Of a stretch of 58,798 nucleotides of DNA, positions 2,455 through 41,484 are shown one piece after another; the stretch's first letter is position 1, and every line of letters begins with the position of its first letter. The notes beneath the pieces were generated by a model that saw only the letters and a program-made list of their open reading frames with translations, was not told where the DNA came from and searched no databases. Made by a program: the position numbers and the translations under genes. Origin of the DNA: an uncultured Clostridia bacterium (GTDB lineage: Bacteria > Bacillota > Clostridia > Christensenellales > CAMQZB01); contig CAZIPL010000005.1 of assembly GCA_964541255.1 (NCBI GenBank), positions 1 through 58,798 of the forward strand. Reading direction: 5' to 3'.

Positions 2455-2551
2455 GCCAAAACATCTTCACGGGGCGCAACTTTTCAAAAATCAAAAGCGC
2501 ATATCCCTAATAACAAATATGACCACCCGAATCGGACAGACAATATTTTTT

Positions 2552-2617
2552 CCAATAGTCGCACCTTATGGCGTTGCGGTAGAAACTTACAGACCCTATC
2601 ATCTATAGATATATTGG
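2552..2617 (-). promoter_or_regulatory. Purine riboswitch aptamer, guanine class
   Basis: Minus strand CCAATA-TATCTATAGATGATAGGGTCTGTAA-GTTTCTACC-GCAACGCCATAAGGTGC-GACTATTGG: P1 CCAATA/TATTGG, canonical GUUUCUAC junction, C at the position equivalent to C74; upstream of xpt. Confidence 0.9.
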
Positions 2618-2639
2618 CAAATATTCAATTGATACTTTT

Positions 2640-6049: not shown

Positions 6050-6250
6050 TTTAGTTTTGAGGCAAAACATTCTTGTTTTGCAAAGATTTTGTCGTTAGAC
6101 AAAAGATTACTTCTTATAGGTTATACAGCGAAAACCGACGATTATTCGAAAAAGAAAACTATCGCTATATATAGGGATATTCCCATATAAAAAAGTGTGC
6201 GTTTTTCGCACACTTTTTTTAGTAATCATGTTTTTATTATCCTTTCTTTT

Positions 6251-11582: not shown

Positions 11583-11715
11583 AACAACCATTTACTGTCT
11601 CCCCATAATCCACCAGCAGCATCCATTTATTCCAAAAAGTAGTATTTGAAGAAGTATAATCGACACAAACGACTTTTTGCCGCTCTGACACATTAATTTA
11701 ATTAATGAATTTATA

Positions 11716-24150: not shown

Positions 24151-24945
24151 TTAACCGAGCATAACCTTGTCGGAATTGACAAGCTCTTTTGCCGTGTCGC
24201 TGAACTTATTGAGAAGATCCTTGACTGTAAGTTTGGCTTTTTCTTCGCCCGAAACGTCGTAAATAATCTTTCCGCCTTGCATAAGAATAAGTCTGTTGCC
24301 GTATGCGATTGCGTTCGCCATATTGTGCGTTATCATAAGCGTAGTAAGATTATTTTCCTTGACGAGCTTTTCCGTCAGCGACATAACTTTCAAAGACGTT
24401 TTCGGATCAAGCGCGGCGGTGTGTTCGTCTAATAGCAATACTTTCGGCTTTTGAAGCGTCGCCATGATAAGAGTCAACGCCTGTCTTTGTCCGCCCGACA
24501 AAAGTCCGACTTTCGACGTAAGTCTGTCTTCAAGCCCCAAATCGAAGCCTTCTAAAAGTTTTTTATATTCTTCTCTTTCCGCCTTCGTAATGCCCCAGCT
24601 AAGTCCGCGTTTTTTACCGCGACGCTTTGCCAAGGCGAGGTTTTCGTCTATCTGCATATTCGCCGCCGTTCCCATAATCGGATCTTGGAAAACTCTTCCC
24701 AAAAATCTTGCGCGTTTATGCTCGCTCATCGTCGTTACGTCAACATCGTCGAGTGTAATCTTTCCTTCGTCCGGAAGAAGCGAACCGCTTATGATGTTCA
24801 TCAATGTGGACTTACCCGCACCGTTACCGCCTATTACGCTTACGAAATCGCCGTCGTTGATTTTGAACTCCGAAATATCGAGAGCGACCTTTTCGTTCGA
24901 AGTGCCTTTATGGAAGGTCTTTTTTATTCCTTTAAGTTCAAGCAT
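24151..24945 (-). CDS. ABC transporter ATP-binding protein
   Basis: GGNGAGKST, LSGGQRQAL, LLLDEHTAALDP, ITHNM. Confidence 0.93.
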   Translation of the reverse strand: MLELKGIKKTFHKGTSNEKVALDISEFKINDGDFVSVIGGNGAGKSTLMNIISGSLLPDEGKITLDDVDVTTMSEHKRARFLGRVFQDPIMGTAANMQIDENLALAKRRGKKRGLSWGITKAEREEYKKLLEGFDLGLEDRLTSKVGLLSGGQRQALTLIMATLQKPKVLLLDEHTAALDPKTSLKVMSLTEKLVKENNLTTLMITHNMANAIAYGNRLILMQGGKIIYDVSGEEKAKLTVKDLLNKFSDTAKELVNSDKVMLG

Positions 24946-25828
24946 TTTTCTCTCCTTTCGGTTTCTCGTTCATTTTTTTCTTCCAATACGGAATTGCCAA
25001 GAATATCGCAACGACGATTGCCGACAGCATTTTTAGCAAGTCTGTATCGAAACCCAAAGCGATTATAACTTGATATACGATGTAATATAAAACTCCGCCG
25101 AGCGCCGCGCCGAAAAGTTTTACTGCGAAATTGTGGCTTATCATCTTGACGACCGTCGTTCCGATGATTATAGCTGCAAGTGCGATTACTATCGCGCCTC
25201 GTCCCATGTTTATGTCGGCAAAGCCTTGGTATTGCGCCAAAAGCGCGCCCGACAACGCCACCAATCCGTTAGAAAGCATAAGCGCGAAAATCTTGCAAAA
25301 ACTCGTATTTATGCCTTGCGCGCGCGCCATTTTTTCGTTTGCGCCCGTCGCTCTTATCGCAGAACCGAACTCCGTTCCGAAGAACCAATATAGCAATGCT
25401 ATTATAACCGCAACAAATCCGAGTAAAACAAGTATCGAGGGAACTATCTTAAGCTGTGTAACTATTAGCTTCAACGTTCTCGAGTTAAGCGCTCTATTTG
25501 CCTGTCCGAGTATCTTTAAGTTTACAGACCAAAGAGCAAGCTGAGTTAATATTCCTGCCAATATCGGCGGTATGCCCATTTTAGTATGAAACAGCCCCGT
25601 AACAAGTCCGCAAAGCATTCCCGCAACAAACGCCGCAAGCATTGCTATCCAAACGTTTACGCCGTTTATTAACAGCATTGCGGCGACCGATGCGCCCGTG
25701 CAAATAGAGCCGTCCACCGTAAGATCGGAAAAATCAAGCACACGGTAGCTTATATATAAGCCTATTGCCGTTATTCCCCATATTAGTCCTTGCGCAACCG
25801 CGCCCGGGATAGCGTTTAATATACCCAT
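24938..25828 (-). CDS. ABC transporter permease (BPD_transp_2 type)
   Basis: DFSDLTVDGS, GSAIRATGANEKMARAQG, GFADINMGRG. Confidence 0.9.
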   Translation of the reverse strand: MGILNAIPGAVAQGLIWGITAIGLYISYRVLDFSDLTVDGSICTGASVAAMLLINGVNVWIAMLAAFVAGMLCGLVTGLFHTKMGIPPILAGILTQLALWSVNLKILGQANRALNSRTLKLIVTQLKIVPSILVLLGFVAVIIALLYWFFGTEFGSAIRATGANEKMARAQGINTSFCKIFALMLSNGLVALSGALLAQYQGFADINMGRGAIVIALAAIIIGTTVVKMISHNFAVKLFGAALGGVLYYIVYQVIIALGFDTDLLKMLSAIVVAIFLAIPYWKKKMNEKPKGEKNA

Positions 25829-25846: not shown

Positions 25847-26833
25847 TTATCCTTCTATTTCTTCATAATCGGACGGAACGGTTATTCCCAAAGCATCGCA
25901 ACGAGCTTTAACGAATTTCTTGACGGGAGCTTCGTCGTATTGAATAGGCATAGCCGATATATCGGATTTGCCCAAAAGTATTTCTGCCGCCATCTTGCCC
26001 GTCTTTACGCCGATGTTATAGTAGCTTATCGAAAGCGTTGCAAAACCGCAACCTTTGCAAATACCCTCTTCGCCGGCAAATACGGGGATGCCTTTAAGGG
26101 TGCAAATCTGATCTATTATTCCCGTATTAGACGCTACGGTATTGTCCGTCGGAACGAAAATAAGATCTACTTTATCCGAAAGCTCCGTTAGTACGGGAGA
26201 AATATCGTTAGAATCGCTGAAAGTGCTCACGATAACAGTTTTGCCTGCTTTTTTCAAAAGATCTTCAACAACATCTGACTGATATTTGGAGTTTGCCTCT
26301 GCAGAGCAATACAAAATTCCAACCGTTTTAGCGTCGGGGACTAACGAAAGCATCATATTGACCTGCTCTTCGAGGGGCGCAAGGTCGCTCGTTCCCGAAA
26401 GATTTCCACCGATTGTGCCGTCGAAATCATCCATTCCGAGAGCAACGCCGTATGCCGTTATCGATGTTCCGAGAACAGGGATGTCTTCTGTTGCATTATA
26501 TGCAGCCTGGAAAGCTGCGGTAGCGTTAGCCATAATTAGATCAACCTTTTGCGATTTAAAGCTGTTAACTATCGTAGAGCAAGTATTCGAATCTCCTGCG
26601 GCATTGCCCTCTTTGAATTCAACGGTCTTGCCCTCTTTGGCAAGCTCTTCGGTGAGAGCGTCTTTGAAGCCTTTTGTCGCCGCGTCGAGTGCGTCGTGAG
26701 TTACAAGCTGGCATATGCCTACAACGAAATGATCCTTATTCTTCGGCTCTTTAGAACACGCAGAAAGAGAAACAAGAAGCAATACCGATAAGGCGATCGC
26801 TACGATTTTAGTTAATTTTCCTGACTTTTTCAT
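25847..26833 (-). CDS. ABC substrate-binding lipoprotein, PF04392-type (probable aromatic amino acid)
   Basis: Lipobox LSAC; QLVTHDALD, ANAT, GTSD, SAEANS, VPTDNTVAS, SISYYNIG typical of this family. Confidence 0.88.
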   Translation of the reverse strand: MKKSGKLTKIVAIALSVLLLVSLSACSKEPKNKDHFVVGICQLVTHDALDAATKGFKDALTEELAKEGKTVEFKEGNAAGDSNTCSTIVNSFKSQKVDLIMANATAAFQAAYNATEDIPVLGTSITAYGVALGMDDFDGTIGGNLSGTSDLAPLEEQVNMMLSLVPDAKTVGILYCSAEANSKYQSDVVEDLLKKAGKTVIVSTFSDSNDISPVLTELSDKVDLIFVPTDNTVASNTGIIDQICTLKGIPVFAGEEGICKGCGFATLSISYYNIGVKTGKMAAEILLGKSDISAMPIQYDEAPVKKFVKARCDALGITVPSDYEEIEG

Positions 26834-26895: not shown

Positions 26896-26931
26896 GAATA
26901 AAAATAAGGACTTACCTTACGATAAGTCCTT
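26896..26931 (-). terminator. Attenuator terminator of the ABC operon leader
   Basis: Minus strand AAGGACTTATC-GTAA-GGTAAGTCCTT-ATTTTTATT, about 60 nt before the first structural gene. Confidence 0.8.
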
Positions 26932-26974
26932 GTGTTCCGTTTTTATATAACGCAAAAATTATCGCAGCAATTAT

Positions 26975-27028
26975 TTACTCGATCTCCGTAAAGTAATAAT
27001 AGTAATAAAAGTAAAATACGTTTTTCAT
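26975..27028 (-). CDS. 17-aa Tyr/Phe-rich leader peptide MKNVFYFYYYYYFTEIE
   Basis: ATG AAA AAC GTA TTT TAC TTT TAT TAC TAT TAT TAC TTT ACG GAG ATC GAG TAA; preceded by AAGAGG; nine consecutive aromatic codons (6 Tyr, 3 Phe). Confidence 0.85.
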   Translation of the reverse strand: MKNVFYFYYYYYFTEIE

Positions 27029-27072
27029 TGCGTTTCCTCTTTTAGCGCACTTTAGCACGCTAACTTGTTACA

Positions 27073-27101
27073 ATAATACTCTTCTTAAGAAAGTTTGTCA
27101 A
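27073..27101 (-). promoter_or_regulatory. SigmaA promoter of the leader peptide/ABC operon
   Basis: TTGACA-N17-TATTAT. Confidence 0.85.
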
Positions 27102-40776: not shown

Positions 40777-40854
40777 TTTTGTTTTACTCCTTGAATATAA
40801 AGTTTTTTAATAAACAAGGCGGTGAGCTGACCCATCGCCTTGAGAATTTCGATT

Positions 40855-41445
40855 GAGGTGGTTGCGTACCCAGTAAACTTTGCGGCATAAGGTTCAGTAG
40901 AGTTTCTCCGCACGCTGTACTCCCCGTCACCGCAGGAGCCGTTTCCGTTCAAACAGGTCGGTGCGCTGTCGCCAAACGCACAACTGAATCGCCACTAAGA
41001 CCACACTTTAATCCCAGATACGCATAAGCGGTTTTCCGCACAGCCTAGAATCTTTCATTAACAGATCCCCACATTCCCAGCCTCTTTTGCAGATGTATGT
41101 TTCACAGAGCGATCGCTATCATTAATGGCCTTAACTTATTCGTTGTTCCCTGATCCACACCGTCCACTCAAGGCAGGCTACACTGCACATAGCGTTTAAT
41201 GCCACATTGCAGGTTTAATCTCAAACCGTAGAGCGTGAACTTAATCTTCTCCACGTATTTGAGCCTCCGCGGTAAATGGGTCGCTCTCCGTATGCCGTTA
41301 CGGAACGCCCATAAACCTTATCTTCCAGCACACACCCCCGTTTGGGCAACGAAAGCATGCACCAGAAACTTCATCGATATGCCCGCTACGGTCTTTTAAC
41401 CCCGTTTTCAGAATGCGGAAATCCGACTAGAATACTGCACCTCCT
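40855..41445 (-). ncRNA. ole: OLE (ornate, large, extremophilic) RNA, about 590 nt
   Basis: Minus-strand segments match OLE as I recall it: GTGCAGTATTCTAGTC, GGGCATATCGATGAAGTTTCTGGTGC, AAACCTGCAATGTGG...GCTATGTGCAGTGTAGCCTGCCTTGAGTGG, GCAAAAGAGGCT, CTTAGTGGCGAT, CTACTGAACCTTATGCCG; diagnostic position between ispA and oapA. Confidence 0.93.
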
Positions 41446-41455
41446 ATGGAACGAT

Positions 41456-41484
41456 ATCATAGCATATTTTCGTCCAAATATCAA
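41456..41484 (-). promoter_or_regulatory. SigmaA-type promoter of ole
   Basis: TTGATA-N17-TATGAT with TG extension; +1 near 41449. Confidence 0.75.

Follow-up and report, generated by a model that had tools for sequence, protein, structure and literature searches.

A candidate ribosome-mediated attenuator with a tyrosine and phenylalanine codon run ahead of a CD0873-type importer operon in an uncultured Clostridia bacterium

The stretch of DNA analysed here (the window, 58.8 kb of contig CAZIPL010000005.1) belongs to an uncultured sporulating Clostridia bacterium and encodes an ATP-binding cassette (ABC) importer whose operon is preceded by a compact leader. Between the promoter and the first gene, which encodes a substrate-binding lipoprotein resembling CD0873 of C. 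difficile, lie a very short upstream open reading frame (uORF) with a run of aromatic codons and a set of overlapping hairpins, the last of which is a terminator. Taken together, these features make it probable that the leader is a functional ribosome-mediated attenuator that responds to the charging of tRNA-Tyr and governs this importer. All attenuator elements and the importer operon are on the minus strand, and positions are given in the numbering of the whole window. The promoter, the translated part of the leader and the operon are laid out as follows.

27073..27101 (-): sigma-70-type promoter, TTGACA at 27101-27096, spacer of 17 nt, TATTAT at 27078-27073 (scan, 11/12 matches)
27044..27061 (-): 5' stem-loop of the leader transcript, AGCGUGC-UAAA-GUGCGCU, part of the minimum free energy (MFE) fold
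27035..27042 (-): Shine-Dalgarno (SD) site of the uORF, AAAGAGGA, about 7 nt 5' of the AUG, read from the sequence
26975..27028 (-): leader peptide gene, an open reading frame of 17 codons plus TAA, MKNVFYFYYYYYFTEIE
26990..27016 (-): regulatory codons 5-13 of the uORF, UUU UAC UUU UAU UAC UAU UAU UAC UUU (6 Tyr, 3 Phe)
25847..26833 (-): substrate-binding lipoprotein, PF04392, CD0873-like (Pfam E 5.4e-53, 180.6 bits)
24938..25828 (-): ABC permease, BPD_transp_2 (Pfam E 1.2e-32)
24151..24945 (-): ABC ATPase, ABC_tran (Pfam E 6.5e-28), overlapping the permease gene by 8 nt

A preliminary description of this DNA had listed the promoter (TTGACA-N17-TATTAT), the ribosome-binding site and the 17-codon uORF with its nine aromatic codons, and all of these were found; the terminator that it placed ahead of the PF04392 binding-protein gene was located at 26931-26906, followed by its U-tract. 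The uORF starts 38 nt downstream of the predicted transcription start, and the binding-protein gene begins 70 nt after the U-tract. The neighbour on the other side of the leader is the spoIIAA-spoIIAB-sigF cluster, and because this cluster is divergent the terminator cannot belong to an upstream gene. The 5' stem-loop possibly serves stability of the 5' end; it is kept in the related loci L161-L166 (loci are designated by L numbers throughout), where a G-to-A change turns a G.U pair into A-U.

The nine Tyr/Phe codons follow one another without interruption, and nowhere else in the window, in any of the six frames, does a stop-free stretch reach 5 Tyr per 7 codons. Two other aromatic-rich stop-free stretches, near 6231 (+) and near 11656 (-), were rejected as leaders, being a terminator tail and a gene end. 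The frequency of such runs ahead of importers of this kind was surveyed by fetching 160 loci encoding binding-protein relatives at 52-64% identity, of which 158 enter the count, and by scoring the best short open reading frame within 450 nt upstream of the binding-protein gene. Seventeen of the 158 (11%) possess a uORF in which 6 or more codons out of 7 are aromatic. Among the controls, 3 of 1620 dinucleotide shuffles (0.2%) and 1 of 400 random windows reach this threshold, and none of 81 reverse complements does. Chance does not account for the aromatic run.

From the end of the uORF onwards the leader can fold into three mutually exclusive hairpins, named for the four regions that form them: 1:2, 2:3 (the antiterminator) and 3:4 (the terminator). 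The z values below come from shuffled sequences.

26975..26983 (-): region 1, AUCGAGUAA (codons 16 and 17 and the stop), 5' strand of the anti-antiterminator 1:2
26983-26961 (-): hairpin 1:2, AUCGAGUAA with UUGCUGCGAU, i.e. UUGCU(G)CGAU, -6.3 kcal/mol, z -2.5
26953..26970 (-): region 2, UUGCUGCGAUAAUUUUUG, whose 5' part pairs with region 1 and whose 3' part pairs with region 3
26918..26966 (-): antiterminator 2:3, 17 bp, UGCGAUAA:UUAUCGUA, UUUUUG:CAAGGA and GUU:AAC, -11.9 kcal/mol, z -3.15
26931-26906 (-): terminator 3:4, AAGGACUUAUC-GUAA-GGUAAGUCCUU, 11-bp stem, -14.3 kcal/mol, z -6.6
26905-26896 (-): U-tract of the terminator, AUUUUUAUUC

No shuffle out of 200 folds as well as the terminator stem-loop, and 2 of 200 do so for the antiterminator. 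As long as the 3' arm of the terminator has yet to be transcribed, the antiterminator is the predicted fold, and it locks up 13 of the 15 nt of the terminator 5' arm plus the loop. With a ribosome masked onto codon 13, hairpin 1:2 is lost from the fold as its G-C-rich part dissolves. These pairings revise the ones first suggested for the leader. A proposed antiterminator contact between GCGAUAA and UUAUCGU is real and forms the top of hairpin 2:3, but the full antiterminator (26966-26918) is far longer. A UUUAC/GUAAA hairpin over the end of the peptide had been offered in the role of 1:2; it is weaker and less conserved than the pairing of AUCGAGUAA with UUGCUGCGAU, which supersedes it. The GNRA cap ascribed to the terminator is present in the window as a GUAA loop but is incidental, the closest relatives carrying GUCA and GUGA. 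A long-range helix in the MFE fold of the full leader, joining the end of the uORF to sequence past the U-tract, was rejected because that sequence is altered in L161 and absent, by deletion, from L165.

Conservation was examined at close range among relatives whose binding proteins are 65-87% identical to that of the window. Contig scans of genome and metagenome collections yielded no relative above 64% identity; the closer ones were reached only by a protein search, after which the contigs of nine clusters were fetched. The uORF, the terminator and both alternative hairpins are kept in 8 of these 9 nearest clusters, and synteny with spoIIAA/AB is shared by L161-L166. An alignment (A1) shows regions 1-4 invariant, as are both promoter hexamers across L161-L166. 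Region 2 is likewise unchanged in L161-L166 and L170. What varies in the same alignment is the promoter spacer, the loop of the antiterminator, the loop of the terminator (GUAA, GUCA, GUGA) and the sequence after the U-tract. A counterpart of the SD site, of GGAG/AAGGA type, stands at the same place in every relative. The preliminary description had named absence of the uORF ahead of conserved transporters as one finding that would speak against it, and the uORF and terminator are in fact kept upstream of orthologous transporters in many Clostridia.

The leader peptides of the near relatives (MKNVFGIYFYYYFTEIE; MRNVSSIYYYYFYFTEIE; MKKVFGIYFYYYFMEIE; MKKSYFYYYYFTVLVK; MKKSYFYYYFIGVLVK; MQKSYAQVKKFYYYFYGVLVK) differ in an orderly way. 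Within the run, the changes are Tyr/Phe swaps and synonymous exchanges of TAT and TAC (L171 and L172 differ in this way yet encode one and the same peptide), and L165 has a 3-nt insertion that preserves the frame. The last 5-7 codons of the run are aromatic in all relatives, non-aromatic replacements being found at its 5' end only, and the N-terminal codons of the uORF drift. Read as sequence, these are the changes expected of a translated sensor. One near relative, L174, has no uORF; between its TTGACT...TATAAT promoter and its binding-protein gene (about 700-800) lies the inverted repeat GAATATCGTCGACGATTC instead. In two other loci, a gene for D-tyrosyl-tRNA deacylase (PF02580) is directly upstream of the Tyr/Phe leader and importer (320-757 in L167, 77-514 in L168), accompanied by an open reading frame for a 70-residue membrane-like protein.

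The leader family as a whole has ten members of five sequence types, L001 included, and all ten fold into the same three hairpins, with energies of -5.5 to -8.1 kcal/mol for 1:2, -10.3 to -14.4 for 2:3 and -12.0 to -14.3 for 3:4. The TEIE and VLVK subfamilies differ in the C-terminal codons that make up region 1, and each pairs these codons with its own region 2. In 10 of 10 leaders the last aromatic codon sits 0-9 nt upstream of region 1, which fits the spacing that a stall model needs. Base pairs were counted on an alignment (A2) of these 10 sequences of about 5 types. For the terminator, 95.5% of cells are paired and 3 pairs have changed on both sides, against 29-54% paired in slid controls; for the antiterminator the figures are 90.7%, 3 pairs and 41-54%. 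Because the sample is small, we take this covariation as supportive of the proposed helices, not as conclusive.

The attenuation cycle that we propose for the leader would run as follows. Transcription would start about 7 nt after TATTAT, and a ribosome would load onto the uORF. When tRNA-Tyr (and probably tRNA-Phe too) is charged, the ribosome would reach the UAA, where it would cover region 1 together with the first part of region 2; once it is released, region 1 (AUCGAGUAA) would pair with region 2 (UUGCUGCGAU). Either way region 3 would stay free, the terminator 3:4 would form, and transcription would end at the U-tract, which lies 70 nt short of the binding-protein gene. Under scarcity of charged tRNA, the ribosome would stall at the last aromatic codons, Y11-Y12-F13, with its footprint over region 1. 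A ribosome footprint extends some 12-15 nt beyond the A site. Region 2, thus freed, would pair with region 3 once this is made, the 5' arm of the terminator would be locked, and RNA polymerase would enter the operon. Folding in which the ribosome was simulated by masking 13 nt from the A-site codon is consistent with these steps. An A site placed on codon 12 or 13 hides AUCG of region 1 and frees UGCGAU of region 2. At the stop, the masked ribosome hides region 1 plus the opening bases of region 2, and after release 1:2 can form; 3:4 is present in both cases.

Several observations weigh against this reading and have to be set beside it. Counted from the first base of the stop codon, the region 2 strand of the antiterminator begins 11 nt downstream, and a ribosome at the stop occludes no more than about two base pairs of that hairpin (-12.1 to -9.2 kcal/mol); discrimination must therefore come largely from timing and from the weak hairpin 1:2 (-6.3). 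A ribosome stalled on any of the first five aromatic codons would, in the masking model, leave 1:2 intact. At -23.4, 1:2 and 3:4 together are far more stable than 2:3 at -12, and antitermination must therefore be kinetic, as it is in trp. In the automatic alignment A2, hairpin 1:2 in the register of the window is 80.7% paired with no doubly changed pair. A duplex test on the window sequence alone is not significant (p 0.067), and the covariation depends on 10 sequences of about 5 types, the stems of the closest relatives being invariant. On balance, promoter, ribosome-binding site, uORF, terminator, overlapping antiterminator and their conservation still argue for a leader-peptide attenuator, as first suggested, with the regulation itself a prediction from these elements.

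The binding protein points to the amino acid that such a leader should serve. Its best match in the Protein Data Bank (PDB) is CD0873 of C. difficile (6HNI), at E 1.5e-51 and moderate identity. In CD0873, Glu263 hydrogen-bonds the tyrosine hydroxyl, and this position is Ala in the phenylalanine and tryptophan binders 3LKV and 3LFT; Tyr279 blocks tryptophan, and is Gln in the tryptophan binder; the protein is stabilised by tyrosine only (PMC6816091). The alignment with 6HNI, in which FAGEEG stands against IAAESG and SISY against GINY, makes Glu255 and Tyr271 of the window protein the equivalents of Glu263 and Tyr279. Both selectivity residues are conserved in all 80 aligned sequences, that is, the window and 79 of the 80 genome-collection loci. 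Since the window protein carries Glu255 and Tyr271 at the selectivity positions, tyrosine is the predicted substrate of the importer. The preliminary description had pointed to tyrosine-binding CD0873 as a protein of this family, and CD0873 is the closest match, with both selectivity residues shared. CD0873 itself is a lipoprotein of solved structure (PDB 6HNI/6HNJ/6HNK; PMC6816091) with which the window protein shares this residue pair, whereas the ligand of the window protein is a prediction only.

Orthologous importers elsewhere are preceded by leaders of other types. Peptides in the wider family fall into several unrelated sequence types (MNQQAFAFAYFYYYYFTKK; MKHVNYYFYGYYYPRNDQ; ..GFYYYFYFESNGCLCCS; MQNLAYSYYYYYRCFSR; MNRSFGIAYFYYYFPMRKKQG). 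Eighteen leaders were examined, and in each of the 17 whose uORF is complete a strong terminator stands before the transporter gene; in the 18th, L032, the listed open reading frame runs into its hairpin and the terminator was not called. The duplex between region 2 and the terminator arm is significant in most of the leaders examined. Leaders of the SNGCLCCS group share a conserved RNA block, UGGUUGUUUGUGCUGC, that pairs with the terminator arm GCnGCACAGACAA. This block lies within the uORF in most loci (where it is read as ..NGCLCC..) but 3' of the stop codon in L045; what is conserved is therefore the RNA and not the peptide. It defines a second, larger leader type, found at L023, L044, L048, L053, L064, L045, L157, L102, L106, L121, L134 and L150. 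In a third type, ending ..YYYPRNDQ or ..YYYPRGNQ (L020, L055), the antiterminator strand lies some 50 nt past the stop with several competing hairpins between, which makes it a relay and not a direct 1:2/2:3 switch. The loci L043, L073, L074 and L006 have longer uORFs (27-38 codons) with only scattered YF or YY pairs (e.g. ..SYYFSFAARFIAGRYFAVP..), and with them a GC-rich internal hairpin that is conserved and a strong terminator. Two of the four fail to reach significance in the duplex test, and these leaders may be degenerate or represent a different type of attenuator.

Some orthologues carry elements of another kind. A T-box takes the place of the leader peptide at L014 and L046. The first, at 2686-2929, scores 96.3 bits (RF00230) and has UUC-A at the specifier position, read as Phe; the second lies about 130-340 nt upstream of the binding-protein gene with a specifier that, by eye, is apparently UAC-A and would be Tyr. 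The binding pocket of both orthologues is still of the Glu/Tyr type. Five further loci (L035, L049, L050, L054, L067) have no uORF; just upstream of the -35 hexamer they carry the palindrome (A)GCATTTAA-n-TTAAATGC(T), then GATAGATTCATAAA, and a conserved hairpin in the 5' untranslated region as well. The palindrome formed by GCATTTAA and TTAAATGC is, from its sequence and position, probably a repressor operator. In several Lachnospiraceae loci, TwoAYGGAY and GA-cis RNAs precede the transporter by 0.7-2.8 kb (L012, L013 and L015 at about 180-420, L034 at 466-630; L013 and L017 at 2237-2322), and are probably unrelated to it.

A response of the leader to both Tyr and Phe is plausible from the codon patterns and the T-box specifiers, with the case for it and the case against it nearly in balance. 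Tyr and Phe codons alternate where a stalled ribosome would mask region 1, and on this ground we tentatively propose a two-input sensor, in which a shortage of either charged tRNA would open the importer, the importer would carry both amino acids, and the transporter would have been rewired repeatedly to interchangeable sensors of tRNA charging; we hold this fuller scheme possible, and well short of the confidence that we place in attenuation by Tyr-tRNA charging.

The explanation that survives best beside it is the same attenuator sensing tyrosine only, the Phe codons being tolerated fillers and the supply of Phe having no physiological effect. UUU and UAU are one base apart and both keep the run U/A-rich and unstructured; Tyr exceeds Phe by 2-3 to 1 in nearly all leaders, and the run of L001 is YYYYY with no Phe; and the Glu in the pocket bonds the tyrosine hydroxyl, CD0873 being stabilised by tyrosine alone. 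Set against these points, a Phe codon occupies the last or second-last place of the run, the place that masks region 1, in 9 of 10 leaders, and one orthologue is under a T-box with a UUC-A specifier. Tyrosine-only sensing is, in our estimate, doubtful, though it deserves to be taken seriously.

Much less probable is that the short open reading frame encodes a functional small hydrophobic peptide, acting in the membrane or as a signal, next to a hairpin that is a mere inefficient terminator or stabiliser. The reading frame is conserved and has a good SD site, and leader peptides with functions in trans are known, as with peTrpL (PMC7298713). Conservation at the peptide level, however, is confined to the aromatic run, with a drifting N-terminus; the C-terminus differs between subfamilies while the RNA pairing persists; the SNGCLCCS block, inside the reading frame at some loci and after the stop in L045, indicates conservation at the level of RNA; and the overlapping alternative helices would be left unexplained.

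A protein- or ligand-binding RNA switch, be it a riboswitch or the target of a TRAP/PyrR-like attenuation protein, with an incidental uORF, is similarly improbable. A terminator and antiterminator pair would suit any such switch, and Firmicutes often use RNA-binding attenuation proteins and riboswitches. The leader has no Rfam match above threshold, however, and no conserved structured aptamer upstream of region 2, where only the uORF and the small 5' hairpin are conserved; nor would such a switch explain the enrichment of uORFs (17/158 vs 3/1620) or their frame-preserving changes. Least likely of all, to the point of being negligible, is a chance juxtaposition of a UAU/UUU-rich short reading frame with a constitutive terminator-like hairpin: the region is AT-rich, UUU, UAU and UAC are common triplets in it, and the window-only duplex test gives p 0.067, but reading frames of this kind appear in 0.2% of dinucleotide shuffles as compared with 11% of loci, the frame is kept in relatives at 65-87% identity despite diverged flanks, and a terminator between a promoter and its sole downstream operon is senseless unless conditional.

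These considerations return us to the leader-peptide attenuator, which can be placed among known systems. A search of the leader against Rfam 15, with E values up to 10, returned no family match, only noise and a sub-threshold hit to Phe_leader (RF01859), at 27029-26900, whose 18.7 bits (E 2.6) fall below the gathering threshold of 55, so the leader is not a member of that family. The T-box model RF00230 has no match in the leader or anywhere in the window, and the same model does detect the T-box of L014 (96.3 bits). The literature searched, whose coverage leaves out most subscription journals, held no description of a Tyr or Tyr/Phe leader peptide or of leader-peptide control of the PF04392 transporter family. 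The preliminary description likewise knew of none for this transporter family, and neither Rfam nor that literature contradicts it. To our knowledge, no Tyr leader peptide has been described.

The E. coli leaders of pheL-pheA, pheM-pheST (RF01859), trpL and hisL resemble the window leader in being short and translated, in clustering codons for the amino acid sensed, and in their 1:2, 2:3 and 3:4 hairpins; in all of them a stalled ribosome masks region 1 and causes antitermination, a step that is predicted for the window. The window leader has no sequence homology to pheL-pheA or pheM-pheST. Its run is mainly Tyr, mixed Tyr and Phe; its target is an uptake ABC transporter and not a biosynthetic or synthetase operon; and its host belongs to the Clostridia.

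The preliminary description had noted that Firmicutes mostly use T-boxes or TRAP; leader peptides do have precedents in that phylum. His leaders precede hisS and hisZ in the Bacillus cereus group (PMC2965389) and the his operons of Peptostreptococcaceae and Erysipelotrichales (PMC9413887), and a Leu-rich attenuator peptide of ilv-leu is reported from S. aureus (PMC5794164). These share phylum and the predicted mechanism with the window leader and replace the T-box that relatives use for the same genes. What they sense is His or Leu, and their targets are genes for biosynthesis or synthetases, whereas the window leader has Tyr/Phe codons and an importer as its predicted target.

The homologous importer TrpXYZ of Streptococcus suis is under the control of a Trp T-box (PMC9382623). 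That system and the T-boxes of L014 and L046 have much in common with the window: the same transporter family, uncharged tRNA leading to antitermination and more uptake, and an intrinsic terminator. In T-box systems, in contrast, the RNA binds tRNA directly, while the sensor in the window leader would be the translating ribosome, and the window has no T-box. We regard the leader as a new family within a well-known kind of regulator: a textbook mechanism with a new amino acid, a new target and a new phylum. Outside this locus, the window also contains a full-length OLE (ornate large extremophilic) RNA at 40842-41459 (-) (423 bits, model positions 1-616) and a purine riboswitch aptamer at 2536-2636 (-) (50.4 bits against a threshold of 37).

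If borne out, the finding would assign a substrate (tyrosine, perhaps phenylalanine) and a regulatory logic to a common and poorly annotated ABC importer of gut Clostridia. Tyr would join the short list of amino acids sensed by leader peptides, and the textbook rule of T-boxes in Firmicutes in place of the leader peptides of Proteobacteria would be weakened. The compact leader, about 170 nt long, is a candidate part for a Tyr-responsive genetic switch. Across the family, the importer is wired to leader peptides of at least five unrelated types, to Phe and Tyr T-boxes and to probable repressor operators, which, if true, would be a natural example, of uncommon clarity, of regulatory turnover around a single function. 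In uncultured gut bacteria, unannotated uORFs like this one could also serve to predict the specificity of transporters and auxotrophy for aromatic amino acids.

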